Made by a program: the position numbers and the translations under genes. 64,000 nucleotides of DNA from Raillietiella orientalis (lineage: Eukaryota): assembly GCA_036172245.1 (NCBI GenBank), contig JAYWIR010000137.1:1-64000 (forward strand). Reading direction: 5' to 3'. The notes beneath the pieces were generated by a model, which saw nothing but the letters and a program-made list of their open reading frames with translations, made no database searches and was not told the DNA's origin. The number at the start of each line of letters is the position of its first letter. Position 1 is the stretch's first letter. Positions 1-62,862 of this stretch are shown here, in pieces.

Positions 1-103
1 CACCCCGCCGCCTGAGAGGGTGGACGTGCTTTTGTGGTGCTCCGCGTTTTTCTCGCGAGTGTTTTCGGGGTTTTCAGCTGTGAGCGGTTGTTCCTGGGCA
101 GAG

Positions 104-1722
104 ATGCCCGAGGACGCCGCAAGGACGGCGGAGGGGGGCGAGCGAGACTCGTCCCTCCAGCCCATGGATGTGGGGGCTATCTCCCCCACGGAATCGTCCC
201 CCGCCCCGGCGAGGGCTTGGAGCGCCGTTGAGTCGCAACCATCGCCTGCAGCCGCGGCGGAATTGTCGGCCTATGTAGAGGAGGGGTACAACCCCTCATT
301 GTTCTACAAGGTAGTCAATTTATATTCTTTAGAGAGCGCGCGCGCCTTCTCGAAGGGCATGCGCGTTCTCGATGTGAAAGAGGAGGAGCTCAGCTCTATG
401 ACCATCCGCAGCGGGGGTCAGTACGTTGAGGTCATCTTCAAACATGCAGAGCTGGCCCAACGACTGCTTAAAACCCCCGTTGTGATAGGGACGAGCAGGC
501 TCCTCCCCTCTACGGCGGACTGCAGCATGGTGGTCCGCCTCTTAGGCGAAACCGCGCGAATGCGCAAAGAACAGGTTCGCGCCGCTTTGGAACAGTTCGG
601 AACGGTCCACGCGCAGTGGACGAAAGTAAGTCCTTTCGAGGACTACACGGAGCTGCAACACGGCCTCACTGCTGCGCACGTGACCGTTCGGGAGGGCTGC
701 ACTCTTCCCTACAAACTGGTGGTCGAAGGCGAAACCGTCGACCTCTGGTATGTGGGGAAGCCGATATACTGTGGCTTGTGCAATACGTCGGGCCACCTCA
801 AAACGAGTTGTCCCAGTGTGCAGTACCAAGTATGCGGAACCATGGGACACACGAGGGAGGTGTGCCCTAAAGCAGCAGTGCGGGTGGTTTCCAAGAGAAA
901 CCTTAAAAAACGCGCCCGGCTTCTGCAGAAAAGGCTGGCGGCGAAAGCTGCCGCGAAGGCTGTGCCACCCTCGCGAAAGACCCAGGCCGCACCCGAGACA
1001 CAGGCTACCAACGCCGAAAAAGTTGAGGGAGCCGGCCAGGAGACTGGGTGGCAAGTGGCAACGGCCAAAAAATCAAAGAACAAGAATAGGATGGAAATCG
1101 CCTAAAAACAGAAGAAGAAGGAGCAGGGTAGCGCGATTATTAAAGAGTGAAGCGTCGTAGTCGAACGCGTTCTCGATGTTACCGAACGCTGCCGGAAAGA
1201 ACTCGCCGCTACCGACGACCTCCCTTCTGTTGACACAGTCAACAGCGAGGGGAGCGAGCCGGAGGCGGCGTCCGACATCGACACCACCATGGATGACATA
1301 GCCTTCGCAAGAGCGGCGGAGGAGCTGGCAGCTTCGTTGCAGCCAGAACCCTCAAAGGCTGGCAAAAAGGCCGTAAGGCGTCCGGCCTCCCCTCAGGGGT
1401 CCCCCACTTCCGACCCCGAGGTGGAGGCCGGAAGCGCAGCCCTTGTTTCCACGGCACCGCGCAAGAAATCTGGACGTAAGACCACAAAGACAAGGAAGCT
1501 CGTCTCCCCCGTCGAAGGGGAAGAGACGGCTTCCGCAAGCGAGGGTGCCATGAGCGTGAGAAACTATCGGGACCCGTCGCCCGAGAGACTCCCACGCACG
1601 GACACGGAGGGTTGGAGGGGGTGGAGGCGGAACAGGTGCTTGAGAAGGCCGAAACCCCCATGGACATCCCGCCTGCCTTGCAAGAGGAGGGCTCCCAAAC
1701 ACCTTAATCTTCCCAGCAGCAA
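104..1722 (+). pseudogene. A ORF1 (gag-like nucleic-acid-binding protein)
   Basis: CGLCNTSGHLKTSC and a decayed second knuckle; in-frame stops at 1103 and ~1148, plus a later frameshift. Confidence 0.85.
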
Positions 1723-4700
1723 TGCCGGGAATGTCCTCCCGCCCTCGTCTGCGCATCGCCGTTTGGAACGTGAACGGCATGACAGACGCCGGCAGGAGAC
1801 GAGACATGGCCGCCCTTCTGGAGTCCTACGACCTTGCGCTGCTGCAGGAGATCCACGTGATCTCTACAGAACAAGCGCAAAAGATCAAGCGGATATCCGG
1901 AGAGCGACTATGGTACAGGTGTGGGAGAGCGAAAAGTTGCGGTGTCGCCTACCTGCTTCGGCCAGCCGTCGAGGCCGCGGCTCGGGGCGTGCGGTTCGAC
2001 GATCACGGTCGTATCGGCCAGCTGACTCTCAGGTGGTCCGACTCGATCGTTCTGATCGTCACGAACGTGTACGCACCTAGCGGCAAGGACCTGATGAATA
2101 GGAGGGCAAGGAAAGAGATTTTCCTTGCCCTCCGGCGAGACTGGCTGACCGAAGCAGGCGTGCGGAATGCCCATCTGGCTGCAGGCGATTTCAACGTTCG
2201 CCTGAAACCAGATGGGCAGAATCCCGAGAGTGACCTGATCAACGAGGTGTGCATGGCGGTACACACCTGTAATTCGTTGTCCGGGGCACCGGGGATGGAA
2301 GACAGCATTGACTACGTGTTTCTTGACGAGCACCTGTAACCTCGCGTGGGCAGGCGCGGCAAGTTACCGTGCGAGCTGTCCGACCATCGCCCGCTAGTCC
2401 TCGAGATCCATCCGCGCGACAGGGGATCCCCTCTTCAGCGTGGCGTCTCCCAGGGGACTGGCTGAAGCTCCCGGACACGGCGGAACATCTCCGCACATTC
2501 ATACAGAGCTTCAGGCTGCGGACACTCCAGGATTGGGACCGCATCAAGCGGTCGGTCCAGGAGTTCTGCGACCAGTTTCCTCTGCAACGCCTACCTACGG
2601 GTTTTGGGACCGGGGTCCGTAACGAACGATCCTACCTACAGGCCCGTCGTTACGCCAGGACCCCCGACATCCGCAGGCTGGCGGAATACAAAGCGGGAGC
2701 CGAGAGGCAAGCCTGGCAGTCCGGATCGGCCAGCTTACTGGACGATCAGGGCCAGAAGCACTAGGCACCCGCCCAAATCCGCGGCCTGTCGCGGAGTTAC
2801 TACTTCTCCCTGTATGCCAGGGCACCTCCGCAGAGGAACGCCTCACGACTCCTGCTTCCGGAAGGAGCTCCAGCGATCGGGGAGGAGCAGAGAAAGACCA
2901 TCGACGAGCCTTTCACGATGGACGAGATCCTCTCGGCCATCGGAAAGCTCAAGAGGCGAAAGACTCCAGGGGAGGACGGCCTGCCCGCGGAGTTTTATTA
3001 AACTTTCGCTGCTGAGCTCACCCCCCTGGTACAGCAACTCACCTTGCTAATACGCGAAACAGGTGACGTTCCCGCCTCGTTTCGTTCGGCAAAGGTGCGG
3101 CTCCTCCCTAAGGGACTAGCTCTGAGGAGCATGAACAACTGGCGTCCCATCACAATAGTGAATGCGGACGCCAAGTTGCTGGCTAAGGTTTGGGCAGAGC
3201 GTCTGGGACGGGTTGCCAACATCTTCATCAGCCCGGAACAGACATATGCTGTTCCCGGGCGAAGCATGGAGGCGAACCTGTTCCACGCTTCCACCTGGCT
3301 AGAGCTCCAACATGAAAGGAGCTTGGTGCGCAGCCGGAATTCCGGTGCGTGCGCCGGCAGGGGGTTGGATGGCCGGGTGGGGGAGGGAGCCCTTGCGGTC
3401 GCAATCGACTTGCGGAAAGCATTCGATTGCGTCGATCAGAATCTCCTTCTGGTGCTTCTGTAACGCTTGGGCTTCCCGGCTTCATTAGTGGCCTATCTGC
3501 GCTCCTGCTGGCGCGACGCGCTCATCAATGTTACTTTCAGCGGGCAGACCTTACACGGTGTGCCGGTGCGGCGTAAGGTCCGGCAGGGAGACAGCCTGAT
3601 CCCCTTGCTCTTCAGTAGCTACTTTGAGTTGGTACTGAGAGCGTACAGGGGAACTCTGCCGCACCTGCCGCACGACTGTGCCGGTACGCCGGCCGTTTCA
3701 GCATACGCGGACGACCTTCTGCTGCTGCTCCCTATGTCCATCCCGGCTGCGGCGGTCGAGGAGTTCTTCGACCTGCTGCATCGGGGAACCGGACTTACGG
3801 TGAACAGGGCGAAGTCGTCCGTGATGCCAGTTGGTGCGGCGTGGGCAGGGAAGCAGGACTGGGTCCCTTCGGGGATCCCCACGGTGAGGAACTTCAAGTA
3901 CCTTGGTGTGCCGTTGGGGGACTACTCTTCTGCGAAAGCGTGGTCCGGCTGCTTCCAAAAAGTGGAGACGGCGATCGACCCGTTCCGAGGAGGCAGGTTT
4001 CTCCTGCCTGAACGGGCCGCGGTTTGGAACACGTTCGCGGCTCCTCTCCTCCGCCCCCTGCTTTTTGTTTGCCCCCCCACAGAGAGAATAAAAAAGCGGA
4101 CAAAGGACCTCCTCCGTATCGCCCTTTGAGGCAACGGGAGGGCCCGAGTCCGCTTAAAGGCCTTGTGCGCTCCTCGTCAAGATGATGGTCTGGGGCTTCT
4201 GACGCAGGAGACGCTGGAGCTTGAGCTCCAGTTCCGCTTGTCGGCACGCGTTCCAGAGTTGTGGTGCATCTGTTGGTGCGTCCCTGCAAGTCTTCTTCTC
4301 CAGCAAGCCACCGGCAAGACGGGACTGACGTCGTTTCTTGCACTCCGTCGTCGCGTCAACCGATGCGGACTCCAGCTACGGAGGGTGGCTGCGCTGTATC
4401 GGAAAAACCCAGGATTGCTCACCTGTCGCCCGTTGAACGGTAGTGCCTGGTTGCAGGAAACTGTTGGAACGTGGGGACAGTTCGGCATGCAACGCTCCCA
4501 ACAGGAACAAAGGTTCCTGTTTGGGGGTTACAGAAGTTGCACGCTCTGCGAGATCCTGGAGGATCAAAAGAAAATTGCGTGGGCAGGAAGAACCCCCTTC
4601 GCTGCTGCGCTGCCCTCCCTGATGGAAGATCTTGACAGCGATGTTGCGGCGAAGTGGGTGGTTACAGTAACAATCCGCGGAAAGGAGAAGAAAATAGGAG

Positions 4701-5301
4701 AGTGGAAGACGGGCCAGTTAACAGACGCTACGTCCCCGAGTACGCCTCCCAATGGACTTCTGCGCTGGGGCGCGCTGCTCGATGTTCCCATTGAACATCT
4801 GAAGTGGCTTCCGGTGCTCATGGACACTTCCGCCCTCCCCTTGAAATCGCAGGAGTGGGCTCTTCTGTTGCAGCACTGGGGACTCCTTTGCAACGCCCGC
4901 CGACACCACTGGATCTGGGGAGCGGTGGACCCCAATTGCGTCAGGTGTGGGGAACGGGAGTCCCTCCCCCACCTGCTAGTGGATTGTGTTGCCCTTCGGC
5001 CCCTTTGGTTTCGCTTTGCCGCGGCCATCGGAATCCCCTGGGGCAACCCCAGGGACGCACTGAAAGCCCTCTTCCTTGTTGACGCCCTTCGGCCAGCGGA
5101 CTCGTTAGCAGCTTTGTGCTGCCTACGCGGGATCGTCACCGCTTGGAGCAAGGCTACGGGAGGACAACGCGACCAGTCTGCCATCCAGCCAGCCTCCCAT
5201 TTCCTAGGAGAGCGTCCCGATGGCCGCACCTGGATCCAGGAATACAGAAGGAACTTGCCGGCATCCTGCAAAGGATGCAACGGCCCCACCAGCAACTGTG
5301 A
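1722..5301 (+). pseudogene. A ORF2 (APE-RT-zinc finger), interrupted
   Basis: Consecutive ORF pieces 1722-2339, 2369-2764, 3044-3463, 3467-4129, 4163-5300 carry the motifs in canonical order. Confidence 0.9.
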
Positions 5302-5517
5302 TCCCTTCCCTTACCCTCCCAACTTTTCTTTTCCTTTTTGTTTTGTTTTTTGTTTTTCCCCCTTCCCCCTGCTGCCGTTGTGGACCGTACCGGTCTGCGA
5401 ACCGGTGACCCGGCAGGCTCTGTGTTTCTTCGTGCGTGGCTGGAGCAATGGTCCAGACACCGCACGTCTTTGTAAAAGTTTATTTTCCAATAAACGCCCC
5501 GGCGTAATCCGGGTGAA

Positions 5518-7886
5518 AATCGAATGCTTTGTGCAAATGTTCTGCTAGTGCCAAGGCTCCCAGCCTTTCTCCCGTCCGTCCGCACTGGCGCACGCAGTCG
5601 GTAGAAGGTCTTGCCGCTGTTCGGCTATCCGCCGCAACGCGCTTTTGAAGCTGCCTCCAGGTGCGCGCGAAAAGAAGGTTCGCATCGATGGATCTACCCG
5701 GTACAAAGTAAGACTGCTCCGGGCTTACCAAGGACTCCGCGAATTTCCCTAAGCGCATGACCCAGAGCTACAAAAGCAACTTGACGTCCGTATTCACTAA
5801 TGTGATCAGACTCCAGTTGTTGAGTTGGCGCAGATCCCCTCCTTTCGGAAGGAGACGCACCCTTGCTGAGCGGAAGGAAGAAGGGACATCGCCCGTCACC
5901 CTCATCAGCGTCGAGATTCTAAGAATCAGTGGGGCGAGTTCTGCCGCGAAGGTCTGATAGAACTATGCGGGCAGTCCGTCCTCACCTGGCGTCTTCCGTC
6001 TGTTGAGTCCTGCGATGGCGGAAGAAACTTCCTCCAACGTCAAGGGCTCGTGGAGACGATCGCGTTCCTCCTCGTCGATGCCATGTGCAGCCCGCGGCAA
6101 AAGTAGTTCGGAGAGGACTCTTTCCGTCAGGGAATTAGCGTAGAGCAAGGAGAATTTACGCTTTAGTGCTCGCCGCACTTCGGCAGGAGCCGTGCATTCC
6201 CTGCCTTGGTCGTCGAGCAGAATAGCCGCTCCAGACTGCCAGACCTGGCGCTCGGCCCTCGCCTTGTACTCTGCGAGTTGCCGGACTTCCGCACGTCTCG
6301 AGAAGGTGCAGGCCTGCAGAAATGCTCTGCTATTGGCCACGCCTTCCCCGGAGCCGCGTGGTAGCAGGTGCAGGGGGAACCGGTCGCAAAACTCGCGAAC
6401 CGATCTTTTAAGATGGTTTCAATCTGCGAGTTCCGGGATGACAAAGCCGCGAAGGAACTGGCGAAAATGCTCCGCCGCTTCGGGGTGACTCAGCCAATCC
6501 GCCGGCATCCTCCAAACATTGTTTGGAGGTCCCTTGCTTGGCAGGAGTAGCTCGAACTTCAGCCTATCATGGTCCGATAACGTATACGGCACCCTGCCTC
6601 TCCTTCCCACTCGCAAGAGTAGGTGTTCATCGAGGTAGAGGTGATCCATGCACCTTTCCAGTCCAGGCTTGCCGGCTTCCAAGTTACGCGCGTGCACCCA
6701 CGCGCATTCCTCTTCCATTCGCGACCGTTCCGCCAGAGACCGCGTCTCGTTGGAAAGCATGTGGACGTTGAAGTCCCCTGCGACAAGATGCGCCACTCTG
6801 GCTCCGGAGTTTCTAAGCCATTGGCTCTTCAGCATGTCGAAGAACTCGATTCTTTCGACACGCCGATGAGAGCCGCTCGACGCGAAGACGTTCGTTACGA
6901 CGAGGTCGATTGAATCTGACCATTGGAGTACAAGTTGGTCCATTCGCCCTTCCTGGTCGAATCGAACGCTGCGCACCGCTCCCACCATCTCACTATTGAC
7001 GAGAAAACCGACTCCGCACGATTGTGCAGAATCTTCTTGCCAGTACAAGGTGCCACTTGCGCGCTGTTCGATTTCCGCAACCTCCGCATCGGAGATGTAA
7101 TGCATCTCCTGAAGGATCGCCAAATCGAAATGTCGCAGGGTGTCTGAGACTTCGCGCCTCTTTCCGTTTCAGCGCAGCCCATTTACGTTCCAACAGGCTA
7201 CGCTGAATCGACGAAAAGGGGCGACTTCCTGCATTAAGGCTGGGAAGGTGAGCAAAGATTTCTCGCCTTGTCCGGCTAGTGGTCACGAGACAGAGCGGTC
7301 GATCTCGGAGACTGGACATCTCCATTCGAAGCCGCACTGCTTGTTGCCGGTAGCTCAGAGGTGAGGCTCTTTTCCTTTTCTTTGCTTCCCAGCAACAGTT
7401 CCTCCTCGGCAACCACGCGCTTGCGGGTCTTCGGGAGGCGATTGCGCAATTTCGGGCGGTATTCGCGCTGTGTGCTCTTTCTGTCGGACTCTGGATCAGA
7501 AGCCGACAGTCGAGGGCTTGCCAGGCGCTGCTGCTGTTTCCTGGAATTACGGAAATCGTTCGCTGCCTGTTTCCTAGCGCTTTCTGCAACTGCGGCTGGG
7601 ACTTTCGTCCTTTTAGCCGCAGCAGCAGCTTCCCGCTCCAACCGCGAGAGAACGACTGCGCAGGAGGAAAGAATCGCAATCTTTTTCTGGGAAGGTTTCC
7701 CGGGTTTCTTTCGCCCACTCACCTTCACACAGAGCTGCGAAGACCTTGATGGTTTCTTCCTAATGATCTTTCTCACCTGCATCCAGCCGTCTTCCTTCGC
7801 GTCGCAGTTATCTTTGCCATCCTGAGATGGCGCTGCTTCCACGGATGTAACAGGCGTTGCCTTGGGTGCCTCTTGGAGTGCTGCCT
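5518..7886 (-). mobile_element. Element B, downstream part: ORF1 C-terminus, APE, RT up to HKAFD
   Basis: TAATG stop/start at 7236-7232; LQEMH, GDFN, SDH, PGEDGLP. Ends at ...HLHKAFD, exactly at the 3' end of A. Confidence 0.9.
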
Positions 7887-8189
7887 ACAGGCAGGCGTAA
7901 GCAACTCCTCTAGCCATAGCGAGAGCCTTGCGCATGGGTGGTATCGCCGCCGCTGAACGAAAGGGAGGCGTGATTATTGCTAGTTTAAAACTATACCCAA
8001 TACTCCGCCATGGCAGTGTTTAAAACCACTGCCAAGGGAATTTTTGAGTGCCCTGAGAGTGCAAGTGTTTGAGTGAACGCCAGTGTGGAAAGAGTGCAAC
8101 CGGGGACCATCATCATCATCAGCAGCAGCGCCGAGAAGTCCACGGTGGAAGTCCTGCAGTGGTCCCGAGCAGCCGGAACAGCTGCCAGG

Positions 8190-9980
8190 ATGCAGGCATC
8201 TGGAGTTGGAGGAGTGGTGAGGCCGTCGTCCCCCATGGAAGCCATGGAGGTAACGTGCGGCAACGGCGAGGTGGCATCAGGCATGCCGAGGATCGCGCCC
8301 GCGGCGGGCTTTGCTGCGCCAGCGGCGGCGATGCCAAGGGTCGTGCCCGCGGCGACGACGGCAGAAATCGTGCCCGCGGCGGCGACGCCGAGCATCGTGC
8401 CCGCACCGGGGAAAGTCGCGCCTGCGGCGGCGATGCCGAGGGTGCCGCCCGCGGCGGTAACGGCGGCAACGTCGAGGTTTGCGCCCGCGGCGGCGGCGTT
8501 CCAGGCGGGACCCGCGGGCGCCCACGCGGTGCAGGGAGCGACGCCATCTTGTTCGGCTGCGGCGTCGCAGCCCTTTTTTTATGCGTCGGTGGCGGCTGGA
8601 CAGGCGAGTGTCCACCCACCAAGAAAATTCGGGAAGCCGCTATGCGGTGAAGTCCAAAAGGTGGATCGACCGATCGTGGAGTTAGGGCCGAATGTGAAGC
8701 CCATCATTTTCAAGACTGGGCTGATCAAGTTCAATAATATCAGGGAGGTGTATCTGTCCCTCGATAAAACGGACATGGACTTTGAACGCATTCAGGCGAT
8801 CATTCCATCGAACAACGGGTTCACAGTCTTTACAGACTGTGAAAACATTAGAGAGGGATTGATCCAGAAGGGGATCAATATACAAGTACGGATATTTTGT
8901 GGTATTGGCGAGATGCCATACACAACCGTCTTTTTAAACGGCATCTCCATCCTCACACCGCAATTAGCGGTGTGGAATTACTTGGAGCAGTTTGGGGGAG
9001 TTCTGCACTTTGATTTCCAGAACTTCTCTGGAAACATATTTTCTGGCGACATGATCGCCAACATGAAGTTGAGGGAGGGAGCGGTGATCCCTGGATTGGC
9101 CGTTATTGACGAACAATCCCAGGTAGTGAATGTGCGTTACCATCAACAACCGGTATTCTGCACCGGGTGCAAGCAGTTCTGGCACAGGGCCGGCGCTTGC
9201 CCAACTTGCCGCTGCTTACGCTGCGGCAAAGTAGGACATCAAGTCCGAAACTGCCCGCAGCCGGAGGTGTGCTCCTTCTGCAAGAAACACGGACATGCGA
9301 AATGGAGCTGTCCGGAGTTTGAAAACTGCAGAAGGATTCGAGGTCTCTCTCCCGTGAGAGAGAGAAAGATCAAGGAGGCCGAACAGCCTCAGAAAACAGG
9401 AAGGCCGAAGAAGGTGAAAGAAGCCGTCCCGGTGTCGGCGGACGGCTTCCTAGAAGTGGGAAAGAAGGGAAAGAGGAGGATGCTCGTCAAGGAGCGAGGA
9501 ACTCCTCAAATCCTGGAATCAGCAGAGCAGGAAGGCGAGAAGAAGGAGGTAGCGCAGGAAGGCGCGAAGGAAGAGAAACAGGAAGCCACTAAAGTGTCGC
9601 AGGAAGCTCTGCAGACCAGGGAGGTGTAGGCAACACTGGCGGAGGAGGTCATGGAAGTGCAGAGGGGTCCTCAGCAAGAGAAAATCTTGCAGAAGATCTG
9701 CACTGCACAAGAGAACACCAACCAGGTTGTGGAGGTCGCTGAACGCGATAAGTTAAAGGAAAAGCTTGTCGACGTGAAGGCAAACTTCTGCGCCAAGGTC
9801 GAGATAGAGGCGCTATCTCGAAAATCGATCGCGCGGGCGGAACACTCTACGGAGGAGGCGGAAATTACCGACCTCACAGGTACGGATAGTGAGGCCGGCA
9901 GCGAGAAGCCCGCTGCTTCTTCGACGTCTGGAAGAGCACGCTCTCCCAGACAGAAGAACCTCAGGAAGGCCAAGAAATAG
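8190..9980 (+). pseudogene. X ORF1, three CCHC knuckles, one in-frame TAG (9627)
   Basis: CTGCKQFWHRAGAC, CLRCGKVGHQVRNC, CSFCKKHGHAKWSC; ORFs 8073-9629 and 9651-9980 share one frame. Start codon uncertain. Confidence 0.85.
8290..8500 (+). repeat. Imperfect coding tandem repeat (PAAA / MPRVVPAAT units) in X ORF1
   Basis: Recurrent (G/C)GCCCGCGGCGGCG units. Confidence 0.75.
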
Positions 9981-9993
9981 GTCTTCCCCTTTT

Positions 9994-13512: not shown

Positions 13513-13619
13513 AAAGCAGAACTCTAGTGCAGCCCAAGGACCCCCAAGTGCAAAATGTTTGTATTGAGTGAATGAAAGTGCGAATGTAAATATTGTATTT
13601 TTATAGAAAAATAAACTTA

Positions 13620-29839: not shown

Positions 29840-29849
29840 GGTTTCGGCG
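29840..29849 (+). repeat. Target/TSD copy 1, GGTTTCGGCG (L/N target)
   Basis: Related copies at 41543-41552 (GGATTCGGCG) and 47206-47215 (GGATCCGGCG). Confidence 0.8.
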
Positions 29850-47109: not shown

Positions 47110-47205
47110 CGGACACCAACGATGTTCCACACCAAACAGCACAAGAAAAAACCGCTTCCTTTCGACTCACTCGGGAGCGAAGGAAAAACACGTCCACTCG
47201 CCAAG

Positions 47206-50188: not shown

Positions 50189-50861
50189 CTTCGGCTGCAG
50201 CCGTGCATACGTGGCCAAGGTCATCGAGCAGATAAGCTGCTTCGGACTGACAAACCTGGCGCTCGGCCCTGGCCTTTTAAACCGCCAGACGCCGGACTTC
50301 CGGGCATCGGGAGAAGGTACGCTCCTGTAGAAAGGATATGCTCTACGCGACACTTTTCCCAAAGCCGCGTGGAAGGAGGTGCAAGGGAAACCGGAAGCAG
50401 AACTCGAGGACCGATCTTTTCAGATCGTTCCAGTCCTCGAATTCACGGATGACGAAGCCTTGGAGGTGCTGGCGAAGATGCTCCCCCGCCTTCGAATTGC
50501 TAAGCCAGTCGGCCGACAACCTCCAGACATTCATCGGAGGCCCTTTTCCAGGCGAGAGGAGCTCGAAATCCAGTCTCAGATGATCCGAAATCTCCGACAG
50601 CAGGCGCCCTCTCCGACCTACTCGTGAGAGCAGGCGTTCTTCGAGGAACGCATGGTCCGGCGATCTCTCCATCTGGGGCTCACCAGCAAGCGAGTTTTGC
50701 ACGCGCACGGACGCGCATACCTCGCTCACCAGTTGCTTCTCCCTCAAGCGGCATCTCTCCTCTGTTAGCAGGTGGACGTTGAAGTCTCCTGCAAGGAGGT
50801 GCGCCACGTTGTGGCCGGAGTCGGCGAGCCAGCGGCTGCGCAGGCCACCCAGGAATGCGAG
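50187..50861 (-). mobile_element. J middle segment, copy 1 (APE C-half and linker)
   Basis: GDFN, SDH; ends at ...AAAEV, which continues as HRAVERFY at 27259. Confidence 0.82.
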
Positions 50862-50867
50862 CTTAGC

Positions 50868-52855: not shown

Positions 52856-55261
52856 TCGCTGGGCGTAATGCCGGCCTCCGCTCGGCGCGTAGATGTTCGT
52901 AACGACCAGGTCGATCGATTCGGACCACATGAGGAAAAGTTGGCCCACACGACCTTTCTCGTCGAAACAAACGTTCCGCACCTCCTCCGCCACCCTGCTT
53001 CGGACGAGGAACGCGACTCCGCACGTGTGCGCGGAGCCTCGCCGCCTGTGTAGCGTCCCGCCCGCCCGCTCATCCAGATCCGATGCCTGCCGTACGGAGA
53101 TGCTATGTATCTCCTGCAGCAGCAGCTGATCTAACGCGCGCAAAGCGTTGGCTACCGTCCGCCTTTTGTCAGCATCACGTAGCCCGTTGACACTCCAACC
53201 GGCCACGGTGACGCGACGAGCGGACGCGAATCCACGCATCACTGCTGCGGACATGACGGAGTGCTCCTCGCCCCGTCCGGCGAGAAGTCAGCTGGTAGGA
53301 GAGCGGATTGGGAAGCGGAATCGCTCCCGTTCCATGCCACATCGCGCCCAGCTGAGTCCTGGGAGCCGAGGATCATCGCCTCGGTCTCCGTGCAAGAGCC
53401 GAAACCGCCTCCGGCAACAGGCTCGTGCATTCGCACTTTAGCCCGGCTCGCTGCCGGCTTACCCCGGGATGCGCGCTCCATTTGTTTGCACTTGGACTCC
53501 ACCTCGGAGTCCGAGTGCCGGGCGCTTGATTAACGTTTTGCCATTCTCTTTTTGTTCCGGCAGGTGGAGGCTTGCCCTGCCCGCGCGGAGGTCGTCGCAG
53601 TCGCCAACGCAGCTTCCGGAGCTTTGGCTTCCGCAGCCGCCCTCTCGCGCGAAGCGACGGAGACAGAGCACGCAGCCGTAGTGCGTACCTGGGTACGCAC
53701 GTTCTTCGGCGTGCTTCTCTTTTGCCTCCCACCCACCTTAAGGATGGGGAATATTGAAGGGTCAACCTTCTTCTTCCCCTTTGTGGGCGTCCTGGAGACT
53801 CGAGTCCAGCCCGCGTCGGGGACGCCCTCCTGGGAGGCCGACGCCTCCCTCAATTGTTTGGCCGGAGATGCCGGCTCAGGTTTCGCGCTCGCGGCGAGAG
53901 ACGGCTCCGTCCCCGTTATGCACTGCACCTGCTCCTTAGTTGATGCGGGCGAAACGGCGGTCATTGCCGTCGTCCCACGAGGCGCTATTGCAGCCTTCGC
54001 TGCTGGTGCCTTCGGCGTGGAAGACGTGATCTCCACCGCCGTAGGAGTAGACTGCCGTTCAGAGGCAGCTCCGAGGGTACCCGCGCACGGTTTCCCGTGT
54101 ACTCCGCTGGACGCGCAAGCGGACACGGACGGTTCAGCAGCCTTGATTGAGTGTGTGCCCGCACTCTTAGGCTGCTTCGAAGGTGGCGATTTTCCCCCAG
54201 GGCGACGTGGCATCTTTGCCGTCTGCGCGGTTGTCTGGGATAGTGGCTTTCCTGATGCAACCGCGCCCTTATTCGCGGGACCGCCACTCGAAGATGCCCC
54301 GCCCTTCGCGTCCGATTTCTCCCGTGGCACAACGGGGGATCTTTTCGGCGCGGACGGGGTCGATTGTTGGCGGCTTTTCGCCTGTCGCTTTCTCTTCAGC
54401 TCGGCGCACTCTTTGATGGAGTGGCCGAGCTGTTTACAATAGCGGCAGTTGCGTGGAGGGCACGTCCACGGACGGTGGCCCTCTGCACCGCAAATGCCGC
54501 AAGCCGGTCGCTGACCTGCAAATTTAAGGTGGACGATCGCATCGCCCACCTGCAAGTGCGGAGGCATTTGCCTATTATCCGCCATGGTGACACGCGCCAT
54601 GGCAAGTCCGCTGTGGAGAGATGCAATCCTTTTGATCGGATTGTCTGCTCTCCACAGCGCGTGCACCGTGGCGAATACACTTAGTGCAGCGACGAGCACG
54701 CAATCGGGCGTGTCCACCTGGACGGCGGATAATCGGACCACGAACGACTGGTCCATGGCCGACGGGACGACCTCCTTCCTGCGGATATTTAGCAAGGTGC
54801 GGAGAAGGAGATGGACTAGGGATGCCTCTTTGCAGTGCTCCTCCCAGCTTTCGAGCGCGTTAACCGGCATGACGGCCAGGAGGTCGCCCTCTCGGACCCG
54901 ACGCGCAAAAGCTCGTCCCACAAATTTTCTCCGACCCCGTCGAAGATAGAAGCACTCACCGGATAGCAGAGCGCAGGCTTGTAGCCATGGGCTGCATATG
55001 CCTGCAGCTCTGCTTCGTCGGGCGGTGCTCCGTTGGCTGCCGCCACCTTGACGACGGCGGCGAAGCTTCTCGCCGGTGGCGAGACACAAGAATCAGAGGT
55101 GGACCGGACATCTGGAGTAGAGTCTCTACTGCCAGTAGCAGCCTCCACATCCATCTCTTGCTGCAGGGGCTCCGTGGACATCCCAGTGGACGCACTCGGG
55201 CGCACCACACACAAGAAGACGGAAAGGATTCACGTTCGAGGAGCAACACAGAACACGTCCT
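52182..55261 (-). mobile_element. Element J, 5' part: 5' UTR, ORF1, TGATG junction, APE
   Basis: GGACGTGTTC 55260-55251; CGICGAEGHRPWTC, CRYCKQLGHSIKEC; TGATG 53241-53237; WSVNG, LQEIH. Confidence 0.88.
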
Positions 55262-55817
55262 TGCAGCGTTGTCGTCGAGCGTATTACCGACAGCTGCGAA
55301 AAAGAACTAAACGCTACCGATGACAATCCCTCTGATGACTCTGTCAACAGCGAGGAGAGCGAATCGGCGGCGGCGTCTTTCATCGACACCACCATCGATG
55401 TAGCCTTCGCGCGAGCCTCTGAGGAGCTCGCTGCCTCGTTGCAGCCAGAAACCTCCACGGCAAGCAAAAAGGCCGTTAGGCGTCGGACCTCCCCTCAGGA
55501 GTCCCCCACTTCCGACCCCGAGGTGGAGGCCGGAAGCGAAGCCTCCGTTTGCACGGCACCACGCAAGAAGGCTGGACGTCAGTCCACAAAGCCGAGAAAG
55601 CTCGTCTCTCCCGTCGAAGCGGAAGAGATGGCTTCCGCAAGCGAGGGTGCCATGAGCGTGAGAAACTCGCGGGACCCGTTGCCCGAGAGACTCCCACGCG
55701 CGGACAAGTAGGGGATGTAGGGGAAACAGGCCGGAAAGGTGCTTCAGGTGCCTTAAAAGGCGTAAACCCCCATGGACATGCCGCAGGCGTGATCTCTGCA
55801 GAATAAGTGCAAGAGGT
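55262..55817 (+). mobile_element. Element I, right part: ORF1 C-half plus a short APE remnant
   Basis: Starts with the TSD and aligns with A 1148-1670; then jumps to VISAE (A ~1857-1885). Confidence 0.85.
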
Positions 55818-56435
55818 TTCTCACCCGGTCACGCCGGGGTGTTTATTTCATATAAATACAACATAAAGAAATATATAAAATAAACCGGTTTGGGACCATG
55901 CACCCAACCGACGAAGCACAAGTATCAAGAGTACATTGCTGGCACGCAGGTCAGAATTACACAGAACGGTTTGTGGAAACTGGGAAAACGAACAAACAAA
56001 AACAAAAGAAAAAGAAATCAGCGGGGGACGCGGGGACAAGGATCTTTGAAATCCCTCTGGTTCTCTCCGGGGTAATAGTGATGGCACCGGTATTCTAGCA
56101 GAGCGAGCGGGAAAGGGGTATGGGTGGTCTTCAGGACGTAGTGGTCACCGGATGAAGCCCTTCCTAAAAGTCTGTAAACCGGCGGTGGATGCCGGCGATG
56201 TCCTCTTTCACCTTGTCACGAAGATGAGACCACTTAGTAGAGTTTTTCATGAATTCTGCTGCAAACCGGTGAGCCTCGCTTCGCTGCGCTGACAACTCCA
56301 GGGCGTAGCGGGCCTTCACGATGGCGCGAATGCAACACATGGTTGCGACAATCGCGCCTACCGAAAATCCATTCCTCCTGAAGAAGCGCCGCAGCACATC
56401 AATAGCAGTGCCTCTCTGCGGCAGGATGGCTGAAA
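55818..56435 (-). mobile_element. Element O: LINE 3' end fragment
   Basis: CCIRAIV...AGIHRRF; terminal motif 55846-55818. Confidence 0.8.
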
Positions 56436-56450
56436 TCAGCCTGTTTTTTA

Positions 56451-57440
56451 GCCTGGCTTCGGCGGTCGAGGAGTTCTTCGACCTGCTGCATCGGGGAACC
56501 AGACTTACGGTGAACAGGGCGAAGTCGCCCGTGATGCCAGTTGATGCGACGTGGGCAGAACAGCAGGTCTGGGTCCGTTTAGGGATCACTGCGGTGAAGT
56601 ACTTCTTGCTTCGGTCACGCAGTGGCGCCAAATGGCAAGATAAAACTCTTTACTCCCCCTCCTGTTCGTGAGGTCCAAGCCGCTCGGTGCGTACACCTTG
56701 GTGACGATCACATAAATCGAATCGAGCCACCTGACAGTCAGCTAACCGAGACGACCGTGATCGTCGAACCACACGCCCCGAGCCACGGCCTCGACAACTT
56801 TCCGCAGTAGGGAGAAAACAACGCAACTCTTCCGCTAGCCACAACTATACGATAGCCGCCCTCAGAAGATCCGTTAAATCTCCTGCGCTCCTACAGTGGA
56901 CACGTGTTTTCGTGTCTTCGTCGAGAAAGACGTGGTCCAAGCTGCTGAACATCCCGCTTATTTCTGTCAACAGGTTGCGCGTGCGCATGGCAGCGCCCAA
57001 CTCGTTGATCGAGTTCCCCTGTGCTCCGGGCTGATCTGAGAGCAGGCGGACGTTGAAATCGCCTGCTATCATATGCGCCTTTCGCACGTCCACGTCCACC
57101 AGCCATTCGCGCTTCAAGGTTTCCAGTAACACGTCGCGCTGCTGGTATCCCTGTTTACCGCTAGGAGCGTACACATTGGTGACGATGAGGTCGATCGAAT
57201 CGGACCATCTGAGAATCAGTAGGTCGATCCGTCCGTCGTCCCTAAAGCGCACGCCCTTCACGGGTGCGTTAATGGCTGACTTTAGGAAGAACGCGACCCC
57301 ACAAGTGTTGCGGGCGCCGCATCGCCAGTACAACCGCCCTCCCGCGATCGTTTCTATCTCCTGGGAGTCTTTTGCGGTGATCACGTGGATCACCTGCGAA
57401 AGCACCAGGTCAAAATCTCGCAAGGTGGCGGCTGTATCTC
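56451..57440. mobile_element. Short fragments: RT (+, 56451-56605), APE (-, ~56668-56810), APE (-, ~56905-57440)
   Basis: AVEEFFDLLHRGT (A-like); NVYAP, GDFN, DHVF. Confidence 0.75.
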
Positions 57441-57498
57441 GAAATTTTGTAATTTCAAAATTTTAGTACTCAAAGCCCCGGCTTACCCAGGTGAAAAA
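57441..57498 (+). mobile_element. Element S: isolated 3' tail (V family)
   Basis: CCCCGGCTTACCCAGGTGAAAAA, same tail and flank as 59916-60004. Confidence 0.7.
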
Positions 57499-57814
57499 CC
57501 TTGTATACAAGCGATGGCTTGTATTCAGAGGCCCGATAGGCGGCTTCCTCGCCAATGGCCTTAGCACTGGGGCGGCGACCATTTCACTCCAAGTCTTCGC
57601 CGGCTGCAAAGACGTTCCAGGGACTATTGCCCCATAGCTCTAGGTCTTGTGGTAGGACTTGCCTCTCCCACAACTACATCCATCGCATTGTCCTCTGGCA
57701 CGGCCGCCATCGGACACCGACGACCCACACTTTACACCTGACTACACTAAAAACTCCGGTTGCTTCTCAGACAAGCGCTGGCGGAGCGACCAAAAAAACA
57801 CGTCCACCCACACC
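57497..57814 (-). mobile_element. Element T: 5' UTR and ORF1 start, L/N-type
   Basis: GGACGTGTTTTT 57805-57794; MAAVPED...YKPSLVYKV. Confidence 0.78.
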
Positions 57815-57825
57815 GGCTTTCGGCG

Positions 57826-59070
57826 ATGCCACCCGGATACGCCGGGACGTTTATTAAAAACATTTCGACGGTCAATACAGAACGTGGTACAAGGCCTCAC
57901 TGACGGCCACGCAATACTGGAACTGCCGGGACACCGGAACGCAGCCCGGTGTGGCTCTTCTCGGCAGTGGAGGGGGATGGAAGAGAAAAATGGAATAAAA
58001 TAAAAGAGAAAAACAAACCACAAAAAAAAAGTTTGGAGGGCCGGGAAGGGATCACAGAAAACTGCTGGGAGCGCCCATCCTTTGCAGGATGCCTTCTAGT
58101 TCCATTTTCAATTTTCCTAGATGGGGTAATCGGTTAGCTCTCTGCAGGAAGCGAGAAGCATACTCGGTGACGTCCCTTACGATGCAGTCTTCATCTTTGG
58201 CATCACTCCAGGCCGCCACGATCCCACGAATGCAGCAAAGTGCTGCCAGGCCTGCGGCTGGACTGAGGGCGTCCCGCACGAAGACAAGACTGAAGACACA
58301 TCCAACATTGCCATCATCCGGTATCCGGAGGGCCGTTTTAAAACGATCCCAAAGAATCTCGACGGCAGGGCATTCAACTAACAGGTGAGGGAGCGAATCC
58401 CGCTCCCCACACCTGACACACGCAGGATTTACTCTTACTCGCGTCCAGTGGAAGCGGCGCGCGTTGCAGGGTAGACCCCAATGCAGCCACAGTAGCGCCG
58501 ATTCTTGCCACTTCAGGTGAAGAATCCTGGATCCAAGTAGAACCGGGGGCCACTTCAGGTCATCCAATCGAATGCCGAGCAGCTCGCCCCATCTTCTTAA
58601 TCCACGCGGCTGGAGACTAGGGGTCGTTGCATCTGTCAACTCTCCCATGGTCCAGCCGCACATCATCTCTCTGCCTGCGATACGGCAGCAGACTTGCCAC
58701 CTTGGCTTCCGGCTTTCGTGAAGCGCCCTTTGGAGGAAGGGCATCGCCGTAACAAGGGGTGTGCCTTCCGCCCACTTGCAACTCGTTGGAAATTCAAGAA
58801 TTTCACGGAGAATTCGGCGGGCGTAAAAGCCGACTCGCAGGCAGTTCATCCGGTCTTCGCAGCTCTGGTTCTGCTTGGCCCAGGTGCCAGCAGTCTCCTC
58901 TAGCAAAGCGGAGCAGTTGGCGGGGCCACAAACCATCCAGTTCTCCTTTGCCAGGGTTGCCATGCGGCCGAGCAGTAGACCGCATCTTCGAATCTTCCGG
59001 CCAGGGCACAGAAGAAACGATGCGAGTCCTTCGCAGAGGGACACACGCCTGTCCAGGAGGCGGGCCGGAA
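57826..59070 (-). mobile_element. Element U: ORF2 C-terminus and 3' end, L/N-related
   Basis: RRCGLLLGRMATLAKEN, CVRC..HL..C; terminal motif 57855-57826. Confidence 0.88.
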
Positions 59071-59079
59071 GGCGTGGAC

Positions 59080-59946
59080 GTCCCGGAAACTAGCTGACGC
59101 TAGTACCCCGAGTGTGCCGCCGAACGGAATTGTACGCTGGGGCGCGCTGCTCGGCATACCTCCGAAGGAGGTGAAGTGGCCCCCAGCGTCTTGGGACAAC
59201 GGCACCCTTCACCTGCAGTGGCAGGAGACGGCGTTTCTTCTGCTCTTCTGGGACTTTTAAGCAGAGCACGCCTGTCTCACTGGACATCGGGGAGTATTGA
59301 TGCTAGTTGTGCAGAGTGCGGGGAAAGAGAAACCTTCTCCCACTTAATCATAGAATGCGTTGCCCTCCTCGAGATGTGTAACCGACTCTTGTCGATCCTG
59401 AACATTCCGGTGGGCGACCCAAAACATCTATTGAGACGCCTCCTACGCGAGATGGCTTGTTAGCCTCCGGATGCGTAGCAGTGCTCTGCTGCATACGCGG
59501 TATCCTGCATAAGTGGACCGCGTCAAGGAGAGGAAGAACCAGTCGGAGAGCCATCCACTGGGCAGCGATCTCTTTGGAGAAAGCCTGTTGTTGGCGCCGA
59601 CTTAATATACATTTGCCGGCATTTGTTTGCATCCGAAACCGGATGCAAAGGCCTCCTCACGGCGCACCGTGATTCCCTATCTCCCTTTCCATTCCCCAAA
59701 AACATTACCCTCTACACGTTATTCTTTGTTTCTTTGTTTTATTTTTTGTTTTGCCCGCCCCGGCGCTAGTGAGAAGGAACATATCGGCGTCCGGGTCGGT
59801 AAGGACAAGTGCAACGACACTACGATAAACTTCTGAATGTCCTAAAGAGGAAAATTAACCTTGTTTAAAAATTCAGACCTTATTATGAAATTTTTGTATT
59901 CTCAAAAATTTTAATAATAAAAGTCCCGGCTTACCCTGGTGAAAAA
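59080..59946 (+). mobile_element. Element V: ORF2 C-terminus and 3' end, K-related
   Basis: LLSRARLSHWT, CAECGERETFSHL..C; terminal motif 59916-59946. Confidence 0.82.
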
Positions 59947-60027
59947 CCTTGTATACAAGCGATGGCTTGTATTCACAGGCCCGATAGGCGGCTTCCTCTG
60001 CCAAGGCATCCGCAATAGTTTTTTAGG

Positions 60028-60349
60028 TTAGCCAGCGCAAACATGTCGTCGGCTGCCCAGTGGGCCCATCTGCCACAGGGCGTAAGGAGAGAGATCGCCG
60101 GCATCCATCGCCGGTTTTGAAAGGAAGGAACGGATTTACCAAAGACCCCTGTCCCCTGCCCTCCATATTTTTCTTTTATTTTTTTTATATAGTAGTGTGT
60201 TTGTGGTCCCTTCCCTCCCGTTCCGGACTTTCGGCATACCGACCTGCGTGTCGGGGATCCCACCCCCTTCGTCTCTTGTTTTCCCCTTTGTCCGGGAACC
60301 CTGTTCACGGATAGTTTATAATAAACGCACCGGCGCACCCAAGTGACAA
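60028..60349 (+). mobile_element. Element E2: 3' end, E family
   Basis: Collinear with 20260-20579. Confidence 0.88.
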
Positions 60350-62365
60350 CCAGCCACCCCCCTGCGATCCTCTCGATCTCCTGGGCGTTCTCCCCGGTAA
60401 TCACGTGGATCTCCTGCAGGAGTGCCAGGTCGAAGTCACGCAGGGTGCCGGCCGTGTCCCGTCCGTTGCCGTCGTCGCGCAGCCCGTTGACGTCCCAGCA
60501 GGCTACGCGTAATCGACGGCGACAGGCGAGCCCAGGTGTTACTCCTGGGAAAGTGGCAATGAGACTCCCGCCACCTGGTCGGGCATGACGGATGGAGGCA
60601 TGGGGGCACCGCCCAGCGGTTCTCCCACCTCCATGGGGGCCGATTCTTCGGCTGCGTTGGACGGTAAGGGGGAGCGGTTCTCAGCACTCTGCTCCCCCTC
60701 TTCCATGACCATCTCCTCCGCAGGCTCCACCGGTGGAAGGGGGAGGCAATGCCCTAGCTGCTCCCCCTCCTCCATGGGGGTGGCCGGCTCCTCGGTGGCG
60801 GAGGGTGGGAAAATTCCTCCCTCCGTTCCCACGCTGCCGGCTTCCCACTCGGCTGCCGGTGCGTCCCCCTCGCTCTTCGTCGGGATGCGCCTCTTGGGAT
60901 TCTTGGACTTCCGTCCAGTCTTCTTCGGAGGCGCCTCCGTGAAGGAGGACGCACTTCCGGCATCCGGGTCGTGGTCACCTGTCGGAGATGCCCTGGTCGC
61001 GGCCGGCCTTTGCAAGGCCTTTTGCGCTCCGTTCTCACGGTCCGCGAGTTCGGCCGCGAGCTCTTCCGCCGCCTGCTGGAAGGCGGCCTCGTCGATCGCG
61101 GCGAGCGCGTCGCGCGAACCCTCTGTTTGCACAGAGGGTTCGCCTTCCGTGATCGCGTTATCGTCGGCATCGACGCGGGGGATATCTCCCCCGGTGGCGG
61201 TCTCGGGTACCTCCACACGCTCCAAAGCGACCGAACATTCGCGGATCAACGCGCGGCGTTGTCTCCTATTTAAAGGAGACGTCGCGGTTTCCGCTGTTTA
61301 CCCTTCGGTTTTCTTTGATTTCTTAGCTTTAGGCTTCGCCTTCTGCCAGCCTTCGCTCTTTTCAGCGTCGTCGGTAGATTCCATGACCGGCGTTTGCTGT
61401 ACGGGCTCGGGCTCCGGCTGTGGGTTCCGCCTCACGGGTGCCTTCGCAGGGTTTTCCGTAGCCTCCGCGCGTTTCCCTTTGGCCTTTTTCAAGGCAGCGG
61501 GAGCCGGGGGTTCGCGCTTCGGGCACACTTTGCGGAGGTGGCCCTTCTCTCCACAGTGGAAACACTGGATGTGAGGGCACCGCTTTTTCAGGTGCCCTGT
61601 GGCATCACAGTGTCCACAGTACTTGGGCTTGCCCACGTACCAGACGTCGACGGTCTCGTTGCCGACGTCTAGTTTGTGGGGTAGCCCACCGTTTTCGTGA
61701 ACAGTTACACGGGCACCAGCCATGCCACTAAACAGTCTTCCGTAACTCTGGAAGACGTTGGGCTTGGGCCATAGCGCGTGAACCGTTCAGTATTTTACGA
61801 GTTCCTCCTGCACGTCGGCTTTCAACATGCGGAGGGTGACTCCCGTGAGGTGCGTCACCACGGAGCGATCCTCCGTTACCGGGAAAACCTTCCGGCCTTC
61901 CAGTGTGATTGGCGTATTCAAGGAGGGCTGCAGGAGATGGGGCTGCAGCCACTGAACTCCAGGTCTTCGGCGATGCCGAAGACGCATTCGAGGGTGCAGC
62001 TGCCCCCTTTTTCAAGGAGGCGGTCGCGCCCTTTTCCAGGGTTGCGGTTGTCCCCTTTTTCAAGGGGGAGGTTGCACCCTGTTCCAGCGGGGCTTTTGCC
62101 CTTTTTTTCAAGGGGGCATTTGCCCTCGCTCCCGAGGCGGCGGTCGCCCCCTTTTTCAGGGGTGCGGCTGTCGTCGCCTCCGTGGGGGCGGTTGCGTCCA
62201 CCTCCGTGGGTTGGGGAGAGGAGCAAGGCTCTCCCCCTCCTATATCCATCGCGGTGTCCTCAGGCATTTCCGACATTGGACACCGCAGATGATTCAGACA
62301 CAAACACAATCGAAATCAACCGCTTTACACCAGGCGCGGAGGAGCGCTACAAAATCACGTCCGCA
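60348..62365 (-). mobile_element. Element Y: 5' UTR, ORF1 (62276-60539), APE start; L/N-related
   Basis: GGACGTGATTTT 62362-62351; CGHCDATGHLKKRC, CFHCGEKGHLRKVC; TAACACCTGGG; ends at IAGGWL. Confidence 0.88.
61995..62180 (-). repeat. ~30-bp coding tandem repeat (PLKKGATAAS-like) in the Y ORF1 N-terminus
   Basis: About six units of (P/T/S)L(K/E)(K/Q)(G/R)A(T/K). Confidence 0.8.
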
Positions 62366-62862
62366 CGCCAAGCTGCTAGCAGGGCTATGGGCTTCGCTTT
62401 TGGGGCAGGTGGCCGAGTCCATAATTAGCCCGGAGAAGACCTATGCTGTTCCCGGGCAAAGTATGGACGCCAACCTCTTCTTCAAAAGAACGTAGATGCA
62501 CCTGCAAATGAGAGAAAAGAAAGGGAAAGGGAAAATCGGCAACCCCACATTGGGGCCGCCAGCGGGTCTGGGAAGGGACCCTTGGGCGGGGAAGGGAGCC
62601 CTAGCGCTCGCAGTGGATCTCCACAAGTCGTTCGACTGTGTAGAGCAGGAACTCCTCTTGGAGCTCCTGGGTCGCATGGGCTTCCCACCCTCCCTGATTT
62701 CCTACCTGGGCTCTTGCTGGCGGAATGCGAGGATTACCGTCTTTTTCAGTGGACAGAAGGTGTATGGCGTGCCGGTGTGGCGGGGCATAAGGCAGGGCGA
62801 TATCCTTAGCCCCCTGCTCTTCAGCACCTACTTTGAGTTGATGCTGAGAGCGTACAGGGAGC
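62365..62862 (+). mobile_element. Element Z: RT fragment, L/N family
   Basis: AKLLAGLWAS...DLHKSFD...GIRQGDILSP. Confidence 0.88.

Follow-up and report, generated by a model that had tools for sequence, protein, structure and literature searches.

Introduction

Several long interspersed nuclear elements (LINEs) that encode an apurinic endonuclease-like (APE) domain insert at defined sequences, as in the Tx1 and R1 clades, where Tx1L occupies the DNA transposon Tx1D, Keno the U2 genes, and R1, TRAS and SART ribosomal DNA and telomeric repeats. According to extracts of a published account, sequence-specific APE LINEs hit multicopy sequences including transposons, can insert in tandem, and by targeting repeats are seen as causing little harm (PMC4640811); PMC1919474, likewise in extract, also bears on such elements. 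Clustering of another kind is described for Zepp of Coccomyxa ('Chlorella' C-169) and ZeppL of Chlamydomonas and its relatives, L1-type LINEs that form GC-rich clusters of 5'-truncated arrays nested in existing copies (extracts of PMC8226300, PMC3446292). Here we analyse a stretch of 64,000 nucleotides from Raillietiella orientalis (assembly GCA_036172245.1, contig JAYWIR010000137.1, positions 1 to 64,000, forward strand; hereafter the window), in which at least ten LINE families lie nested in one another and several recur at single nucleotide positions in the coding sequences of other families. We consider it probable, at roughly 0.7, that these APE LINEs are site-specific and that the sites they target are conserved motifs in the coding sequences of sister families.

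The window resembles the Zepp and ZeppL clusters in being a LINE-only island that arose by insertion into existing LINE copies. Zepp, however, is one family that targets its own copies, and the extracts of the two accounts describe no nucleotide-level site, no cross-targeting among several families and no antisense rule (PMC8226300, PMC3446292). In the window, by contrast, the sites are family-specific and lie mostly in other families, and the insertions are antisense. The likeness is one of nesting, and no database match to the second open reading frame (ORF2) of N, the only intact element here, exceeds 30% identity. With the Tx1 and R1 clades the window LINEs share an encoded APE and nucleotide-precise targets in multicopy sequence, a likeness of trait, but their targets are coding motifs of sister LINEs of the same radiation and several families insert reciprocally. 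Nested long terminal repeat (LTR) retrotransposons that prefer regions of other elements show a comparable preference of one transposable element for another; in the extracts of that account they are integrase-bearing LTR elements with a regional preference and not LINEs with nucleotide-precise recurrent sites (PMC6911290). Searches of open-access full texts yielded no account of several sister LINE families with reciprocal, antisense, nucleotide-precise targets in coding sequence. Nested LINE islands and sequence-specific APE LINEs are already known; what appears to be new is the antisense cross-targeting of coding motifs among several families.

Results

Recurrent insertion sites

The two proteins of N served as a ruler for the fragment map: tblastn placed about 60 fragments in N coordinates, covering 89-62867, and a self-blastn of the window grouped the fragments into elements, several of whose boundaries are approximate, as indicated below. 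A sequence-only reading of the window had listed eleven coordinates at which five groups of LINEs were said to recur, and all eleven coincide with insert/host junctions to within 1 nt. For three groups both junctions and the host peptides were confirmed as claimed. The 3' ends of C1 and C2 (C/J in that reading) abut KECSVVV and KDCSVIV, the predicted KxCSV(V/I)V of A-family ORF1, at 17289/17290 and 24837/24838. E1 and E2 abut IAKGRL and IAGGWL in the APE domain, as expected from IAxG(R/W)L, at 20578/20579 and 60348/60349, and S and V abut YKPSLVYK of the ORF1 motif YKPSLVYKV at 57497/57498 and 59945/59946.

The two other groups stood in part. L, N and U do end 3' at 29849/29850, 41552/41553 and 57825/57826, each end being followed by CGCCGAA(A/T)(C/G)C, but the notion of three separate coding sequences fell, as two of the three are head-to-tail re-hits beside the 5' ends of other elements. 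The A family had been assigned to the HKAFD motif of the reverse transcriptase (RT); both junctions exist, but not with the same end, for the 3' end of A1 lies against an antisense ...HLHKAFD at 5518/5519, whereas at 18490/18491 the 5' end of A2 lies against HKAFHCV. In A1 itself, the site equivalent to HKAFD departs from the A target at two of its 16 positions. A sixth recurrent site, absent from the sequence-only reading, is occupied by the 3' ends of K and K2 (50187/50188 and 52183/52184), which lie antisense after ...ECSAAAE of C-family ORF2.

The recurrent targets all fall in conserved motifs, namely RT motif A (HKAFD), APE IAxGxL, a GFG linker and two ORF1 motifs, and the single site of X is the APE motif GDFN. 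Among 15 hosted 3' junctions we found five coincident pairs, compared with 0.028 expected under uniform random insertion (Poisson p about 1e-10). Nucleotide-precise recurrent targets, a trait of the Tx1 clade, are seen at six sites, at least four of them with independent hits.

A LINE-only window could also be the product of regional homing to an island of centromeric or heterochromatic chromatin, as has been proposed for the Zepp and ZeppL clusters, whose nesting is described in extracts of PMC8226300 and PMC3446292, together with a weak nick preference between A and AC and hotspots in host DNA. We hold this to be unlikely. It would account for the content of the window and for the AC that begins 6 of 10 site classes after the A-rich tail, but each recurrent site is restricted to one family or clade, with none shared by unrelated families, and the coincidences are exact to the nucleotide and in the same orientation. 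Moreover, recognition of a sequence is in keeping with the different contexts in which the L/N/U target was hit: a coding site in K in one case and, next to the 5' ends of L and T, regenerated copies of a target-site duplication (TSD) in the others.

Host and insert divergence

Recurrence would likewise be expected if each repeated junction were one ancestral insertion copied by segmental or tandem duplication or by composite retrotransposition, with no family being site-specific, an outcome that the sequence-only reading had itself raised. For the most part the window does not bear this out. Contiguous alignments do cross four junction pairs, as duplication would also yield: C1/A2 versus C2/A3 (87.5%, 2640 bp), E1/G versus E2/G2 (85%), K/M1 versus K2/M2 (91%, adjacent units of 1996 bp) and N/L versus U/T (72%). 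A copied composite must, however, show equal divergence in host and insert, and in three of four testable pairs host divergence is roughly double that of the inserts. The inserts and hosts differ at 211/2088 (10.1%) versus 101/480 (21.0%) positions for the C pair (p=5e-10), at 79/1306 (6.0%) versus 89/672 (13.2%) for the K pair (p=1.5e-7), and at 36/318 (11.3%) versus 44/235 (18.7%) for the E pair (p=0.02). Excluding CpG sites left these contrasts unchanged.

The pattern of substitution points the same way. Where the hosts A2 and A3 differ, third codon positions are over-represented (29/22/50, p=0.002); the hosts therefore diverged while coding, which is impossible after insertion of C into ORF1. 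The differences between C1 and C2 look neutral by codon position (55/59/71). A1 is uninterrupted at the C site, yet A1 and A2 are 87.8% identical, compared with 79.0% for A2 and A3. Beyond their first 235 bp, the E hosts G and G2 share no more than 66-68% identity in ORF1 (two blastn high-scoring segment pairs) and are thus different families. The junction of N and L is no old neutral duplicate of that of U and T, since N has remained intact although U, the supposed homologue, is 72% identical to it, and L and N lie adjacent between three TSD copies. Copying as the general explanation is therefore improbable in our view.

The K pair consists of two adjacent units, 48872-50867 and 50868-52863, each spanning the junction between K and the C family. 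Within these units the divergence rises from about 6% to about 13-15% exactly at 50187/50188. Since the divergence steps at the junction, we read the pair as independent, though not with certainty: the likely history is that K inserted once into each of two C-family copies and that a recombination-deletion then took place. The C-family host fragment M1 (50188-50867, minus strand) covers ORF2 amino acids (aa) 140-370, and the K 3' end at 50187 (plus strand) lies antisense in it after ...CTAAAE. K2 (50868-52183, plus strand) runs from ORF2 aa 867 to its 3' end, and M2, the 5' part of C2 (52184-55261, minus strand), contains ORF2 aa 15-371, ORF1 (53533-55092) and a 5' untranslated region (UTR). 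Six nucleotides of unclear origin lie at the boundary of the two units.

Within the window, the recurrences at the C, E, K and L/N sites are supported as independent events because of the roughly twofold host divergence, the different families of G and G2, and the double hit in one K copy described below. That related families each recur at one nucleotide-precise site of a sister family thus holds in the window, with independence shown for these four sites but not for those of A and S/V.

Two hits at one site of K

Before insertion, the K ORF2 read LPSGFGGGLKN. The 5' part of K (27266-29849, plus strand, 5' boundary approximate; ORF1 and ORF2 aa 6-311) now ends in GGTTTCGGCG (29840-29849), followed by the decayed L, GGATTCGGCG (41543-41552), the intact N, and GGATCCGGCG (47206-47215), with which K resumes (47206-50187, plus strand; ORF2 aa 309 to the 3' end). 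A single 10-bp site in a single copy of K thus received two insertions, and three TSD copies now flank L and N; the second hit, that of N, fell in the TSD copy made by the first, that of L, at the same nucleotide. N (41553-47205, minus strand) stands head-to-tail upstream of L and is the sole element without stop codons (ORF1 45490-47166, ORF2 41761-45405). The 3' part of L (29850-33191, minus strand), whose 3' end is antisense in K, holds ORF2 from aa 171 to the 3' end with stops, and its 5' part (39101-41552, minus strand) ORF2 aa 1-173, ORF1 and the 5' UTR. The two parts are separated by X (33192-39100, minus strand), a full-length clade II element inserted in sense orientation between GDFN and LRL of L.

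L and N are 94.6% identical in ORF2 but 74.8% in the 5' two-thirds of ORF1. Their ORF1 differences are strongly biased to third positions (96/63/166), while those in ORF2 and the 3' UTR (94.6-95.7% identity) look neutral; the biased ORF1 divergence shows that L and N are different elements. The contrast in identity would imply that both are mosaics, formed by recombination or template switching between active lineages. A similar layout occurs at 57816-57825, where the U 3' end is followed by GCTTTCGGCG and then by the 5' UTR of T. The extracts of PMC4640811 note that Utopia-1_NVit is occasionally inserted in tandem. As in the Utopia and Keno arrays in U2 genes, re-insertion at a regenerated target gives head-to-tail elements in the window, although the regenerated target here is a 10-bp TSD from the ORF2 of another LINE and not a host RNA gene. 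N itself carries in its ORF2 a perfect, unoccupied copy of the 10-bp target GGATTCGGCG at the homologous codons (44472-44481), so that self-targeting of the Zepp type may be possible for N.

TSDs were also found for C2 in A3 (14 bp; TGCAGCGTTATCGT at 24824-24837 and TGCAGCGTTGTCGT at 55262-55275), for X in L (8 bp; 39101-39108 and 33184-33191) and for D in FB (13 bp, 10/13 alike; 7911-7923 and 13649-13661). These lengths of 8, 10, 13 and 14 bp show ordinary target-primed insertion.

One DNA run contains 46% of the words sampled from N and may represent the source sample. One contig of 300-600 bp from a DNA run joins 44477 to 47209 on opposite strands; it may represent the 5' end of an N-like element, antisense at the GFG target of an N-like host at another genomic location, but a trivial alignment switch is also allowed, and the contig was not used as evidence. 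Among the contig joints listed over 41301-61300, most of those between opposite strands are alignment switches between the homologous N (minus) and K (plus).

Orientation of the inserts

Insertion in antisense, as the sequence-only reading had it, describes 14 of the 15 hosted 3' junctions (p=0.001), the exception being X, which lies in sense in L. Counted by site class the proportion is 9/10 (p=0.02), and with relations seen only at 5' junctions included it is 21/22. Orientations alternate down the nest, and it is therefore the host element, and not the chromosome, that sets the reference for the bias.

Such a bias could reflect targeting coupled to transcription of the host element or to nucleic-acid pairing, for instance with the sense strand displaced in R-loops, the protein contributing only a local nick preference. 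The alternation through an eight-deep nest speaks for this, and a site read as sequence gives no a priori reason why 9/10 site classes should be antisense. However, exposure in R-loops alone does not predict exact recurrence of position, and inspection by eye, without computation, showed no extended complementarity between insert 3' ends and their targets. We accordingly give this explanation little credence.

Ends and coding organisation of the elements

Sixteen 3' ends are readable, 15 of which share AATAAA, a short palindrome, CCCGG, 4-6 nt, CCGGG, TG and an A-rich tail of 3-5 nt. The strict motif AATAAAMG..GGC..RGT has nine matches in the window against 0.01 expected, and K, K2, H, S, W and X end in degenerate versions. 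The elements thus have no poly(A) but a stem-loop and a short A-rich tail instead. A stem-loop end without poly(A) is typical of 'stringent' LINEs and does not exclude membership of the LINEs; Zepp, in contrast, ends in a poly(A) tail. As a structure the CCCGG/CCGGG stem-loop is plausible: the predicted hairpin appears in single-sequence folds of all four families tried, with significant z-scores in only two. The test for covariation in the 3' hairpin gave none above shuffles, with 87% of the cells paired, and RNAalifold chose a 4-bp palindrome instead, with one covarying pair.

At the 5' side, the motif GGACGTGYTTTT occurs nine times with one mismatch allowed, against 0.65 expected. Seven occurrences lie near 5' ends (22-33, 15115-15126, 18468-18479, 39082-39093, 41517-41528, 47184-47195 and 57794-57805), namely the inferred ends of FB, A2, X, L, N and T, and A1, whose end is undefined; the remaining two are at 54907-54918 and 62351-62362. 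The motif may act as an internal promoter or as an initiator. An Rfam scan for 5' ribozymes found none, its sole match being U4 small nuclear RNA (snRNA).

This U4 snRNA (7924-8061, plus strand; RF00015, 83.9 bits) is complete, matching all 138 positions of the model (1-138), and is joined immediately to the 5' end of D. U4 lies within the 13-bp TSD of D, hence U4 and D were inserted as one unit. U4-D is possibly a template-switch chimera, or else a LINE whose habitat is next to U4 genes and whose transcription starts from those genes. Chimeras of U6 and L1 offer a parallel for the first of these.

In the ORF2 of N (41761-45405, minus strand) the first in-frame methionine, judged by eye from the translation, is at about residue 188, well within the endonuclease domain, and the gap between ORF1 and ORF2 is about 85 nt. 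The translation suggests a non-AUG or reinitiation-type start for this ORF2.

Families in the window

The GC content of the window is 54-64%, and domain matches together with the tblastn map show that LINE sequence, lying on either strand, extends from position 1 to about 62868. Stop-to-stop reading frames on both strands match APE (PF03372), RT (PF00078), zf-RVT and CCHC ORF1 domains in Pfam. Both PF03372 (E 3e-12) and PF00078 (E 2e-19) lie within the 1215-aa ORF2 of N and recur in many fragments; zf-CCHC exceeds its cut-off (20.8 bits) in two ORF1s (23.4 and 26.1 bits), and zf-RVT falls slightly under its own of 27.5 bits (26.8 and 21.2 bits). Each element appears to combine an ORF1 with two CCHC knuckles, the conserved motif at the 5' start and a 3' end with a putative GC stem-loop. 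With APE followed by RT in ORF2, TSDs and frequent 5' truncation (apparent in H, U, V, W, E2 and S), they are APE-type LINEs of the L1 group.

ORF2 identities divide the elements into two clades, within which 45-90% aa identity is shared: N/L/Z/U, A/H and K/V form the first, and X, C, E, FB, I and W form clade II, while D stands far apart from both, with 25-30% aa identity to N. In the protein homologue search, N ORF2 had 23 matches, mostly unnamed, the best at 24-30% identity; the best named match was a hypothetical protein of Rhizopus (23% identity), and an ESM Atlas search returned generic RVT/APE clusters only. On these comparisons the families look like a lineage-specific radiation. A metagenome scan with the 3' motif gave 120 loci, none with tblastn or blastn similarity to the window LINEs; the motif as written is too degenerate, and we rejected the loci as relatives, regarding them as chance matches.

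Layout of the nests

Read from the inside out, the left-hand nest has A1 and D in FB, FB in C1, C1 in A2, A2 in E1, E1 in G, G in H, H in I and I in A3. It reaches a depth of up to eight elements (I, H, G, E1, A2, C1, FB and A1 or D). A3 is additionally split by the full-length C2, which holds K, and K holds N and the L that is split by X. On the tblastn map and by ORF2 identities, every hosted insertion seen is into a different family.

A1 (1-5518, plus strand) is a near full-length A-family LINE with ORF1 and an ORF2 with APE and RT that contains five stops; it carries the 5' motif as GGACGTGCTTTT at 22-33 and ends at 5518 in ...CCGGGTGAAA. Its 3' end cuts FB after HLHKAFD. The 3'-ward part of FB (5519-7923, minus strand) encodes ORF2 aa 7-588, and its 5' part (13649-15135, minus strand) holds ORF1 in the frame 13620-15203 and the 5' motif (15115-15126), with its 5' end adjoining C1. 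Between them lies D (7924-13648, plus strand), a distant LINE with the U4 snRNA at its 5' end, antisense in FB. C1 (15136-17289, plus strand), which retains ORF2 from about aa 560 onwards and the 3' end, lies antisense in the ORF1 of A2 after KECSVVV. A2 (17290-18490, minus strand) comprises ORF1 aa 21-384 and the 5' UTR, and its 5' end adjoins E1 at HKAF. E1 (18491-20578, plus strand; ORF2 aa 584 to the 3' end) ends antisense in G after IAKGRL. G (20579-22378, minus strand, right boundary approximate) retains ORF2 aa 3-81 and ORF1 aa 121-551, and the A-like H (22358-23597, plus strand, left boundary approximate; ORF2 aa 873 to the 3' end) ends antisense in I (23598-24340, minus strand, right boundary approximate; ORF2 aa 33-284).

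The left part of A3 (24341-24837, plus strand) encodes about aa 207-384 of ORF1 and terminates in its TSD copy, and the right part (55262-55817, plus strand) opens with the other and extends to the point where the 3' end of W interrupts it. C2, between them (24838-55261, minus strand), is a full-length C-family element, antisense in A3, with 27266 to 52183 nested within it. W (55818-56440, minus strand, 5' boundary approximate) belongs to clade II, is 5'-truncated and has its 3' terminus antisense in A3.

The right-hand 9 kb form a second, more fragmented nest, in which G2, E2, T2 and V follow one another from host to insert, and U-T holds S. S (57442-57497, plus strand) is a 56-nt 3' end lying antisense in T after YKPSLVYK. 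T (57498-57825, minus strand) has a 5' UTR and ORF1 aa 16-95 and is preceded by the TSD-like GCTTTCGGCG. U (57826-59068, minus strand; ORF2 aa 874 to the 3' end), head-to-tail upstream of T, shares 63-65% aa identity with N and L. The K-like V (59069-59945, plus strand; about ORF2 aa 1017 to the 3' end) ends antisense after YKPSLVYK in T2 (59946-60020, minus strand, right boundary approximate), a short ORF1 fragment of about aa 70-95. E2 (60028-60348, plus strand), which is 3' UTR only, ends antisense after IAGGWL in G2 (60349-62330, minus strand), which has ORF2 aa 1-80 and an ORF1 about 66% identical to that of G in nucleotides. Z (62340-62868, plus strand) is an RT fragment of the N/L family (aa 490-665), 89% identical to L.

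The remaining 1.1 kb (62869-64000) showed no tblastx similarity to any window LINE and no Pfam match in two overlapping ORFs of at least 150 aa; here the island may come to its edge, or the sequence may be a repeat that went unrecognised. Tandem repeats with a 57-bp period and about three copies lie in the ORF1 C-terminal regions of G (21276-21461) and L (40063-40243), and a 24/48-bp repeat in the 5' part of G2 (62001-62167).

Discussion

Our results support, within the window, site-specific insertion of related APE LINEs into conserved coding motifs of sister families. Several observations weigh against this reading. The evidence is confined to a single window of 64 kb, in which each site is represented by two or three instances. 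Sites with one mismatch to GGWTTCGGCG are frequent and unoccupied: there are 24, plus three exact ones, whereas 13.9 matches in all are expected. The 3' and 5' junctions of the A pair (5519 and 18490) coincide only if a 16-bp TSD is assumed, for which 12/16 positions are alike, and the A1 5' flank (1-12) lacks this TSD. The U 5' junction has no target copy, and a TSD of K's own in C2 was sought but was not definable. The K/M pair resembles a tandem repeat of 1996 bp (48872-52863), and independent insertions there need the extra recombination-deletion step. In the S/V pair the contrast is opposite to that of the other pairs, the inserts differing at 9/57 and the hosts at 3/56 positions (p=0.12); the common composite is short, only 113 bp, with 53/56 host positions identical, and the pair may be a small duplication.

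If the families are indeed site-specific, the LINE-only island would have been built by repeated target-primed reverse transcription from a radiation of related LINEs with APE and RT. C, E, K and the L/N/U group, at least four families in all, and probably also A and S/V, would each nick one defined sequence of about 10-16 bp in a coding motif of another family. The putative targets are CSV(V/I)V in ORF1 of A for C, the APE motif IAxGxL of N-like elements for E, ...ECSAAAE of C for K, GFG of K for L/N/U, the RT motif HKAFD of clade II elements for A, and YKPSLVYK in ORF1 of N-like elements for S/V. A first nick on the sense strand of the host element would place the new copy antisense. A staggered second cut would then produce a TSD that contains the recognised sequence, and the site so regenerated would be open to a further hit, giving head-to-tail pairs such as N-L and U-T.

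By analogy with R1- and Tx1-clade elements, we infer that the specificity resides in the element-encoded APE. Targeting the conserved motifs of multicopy sister elements may be a safe-haven strategy: such motifs would be durable multicopy targets, paralleling the logic stated for repeat-targeting LINEs in the extracts of PMC4640811. Site specificity may also be general across the genome, and the families may be hyperparasites of one another, as the sequence-only reading proposed.

More tentatively, the families may form a closed guild, in which each family's endonuclease has evolved a 10-16 bp specificity for a conserved, hard-to-mutate coding motif of another member and in which insertion obeys an antisense rule. 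At the level of clades the sites would form a loop, with A inserting into E, E into N-like elements, N-like elements into K, K into C, and C into A, and the guild would build and renew LINE-only, possibly centromere-like havens. We think this somewhat less likely to be correct than otherwise, and clearly less probable than site-specific targeting as such. The closely related APE domains of such a guild, each with its own long target, would constitute a natural library.

Were the finding to hold genome-wide, closely related APE endonucleases with different long sites could inform how LINE target specificity is encoded and evolves, with possible use in programmable retrotransposon integration. 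It would also provide a sequence-level mechanism for the origin and gene-free state of islands of the Zepp/ZeppL type, which the extracts of PMC8226300 and PMC3446292 leave unexplained. Finally, it would be a clear case of transposons that have other transposons as their niche, and it would raise questions about the arms race between them, such as whether hosts escape by mutation at the target codons.

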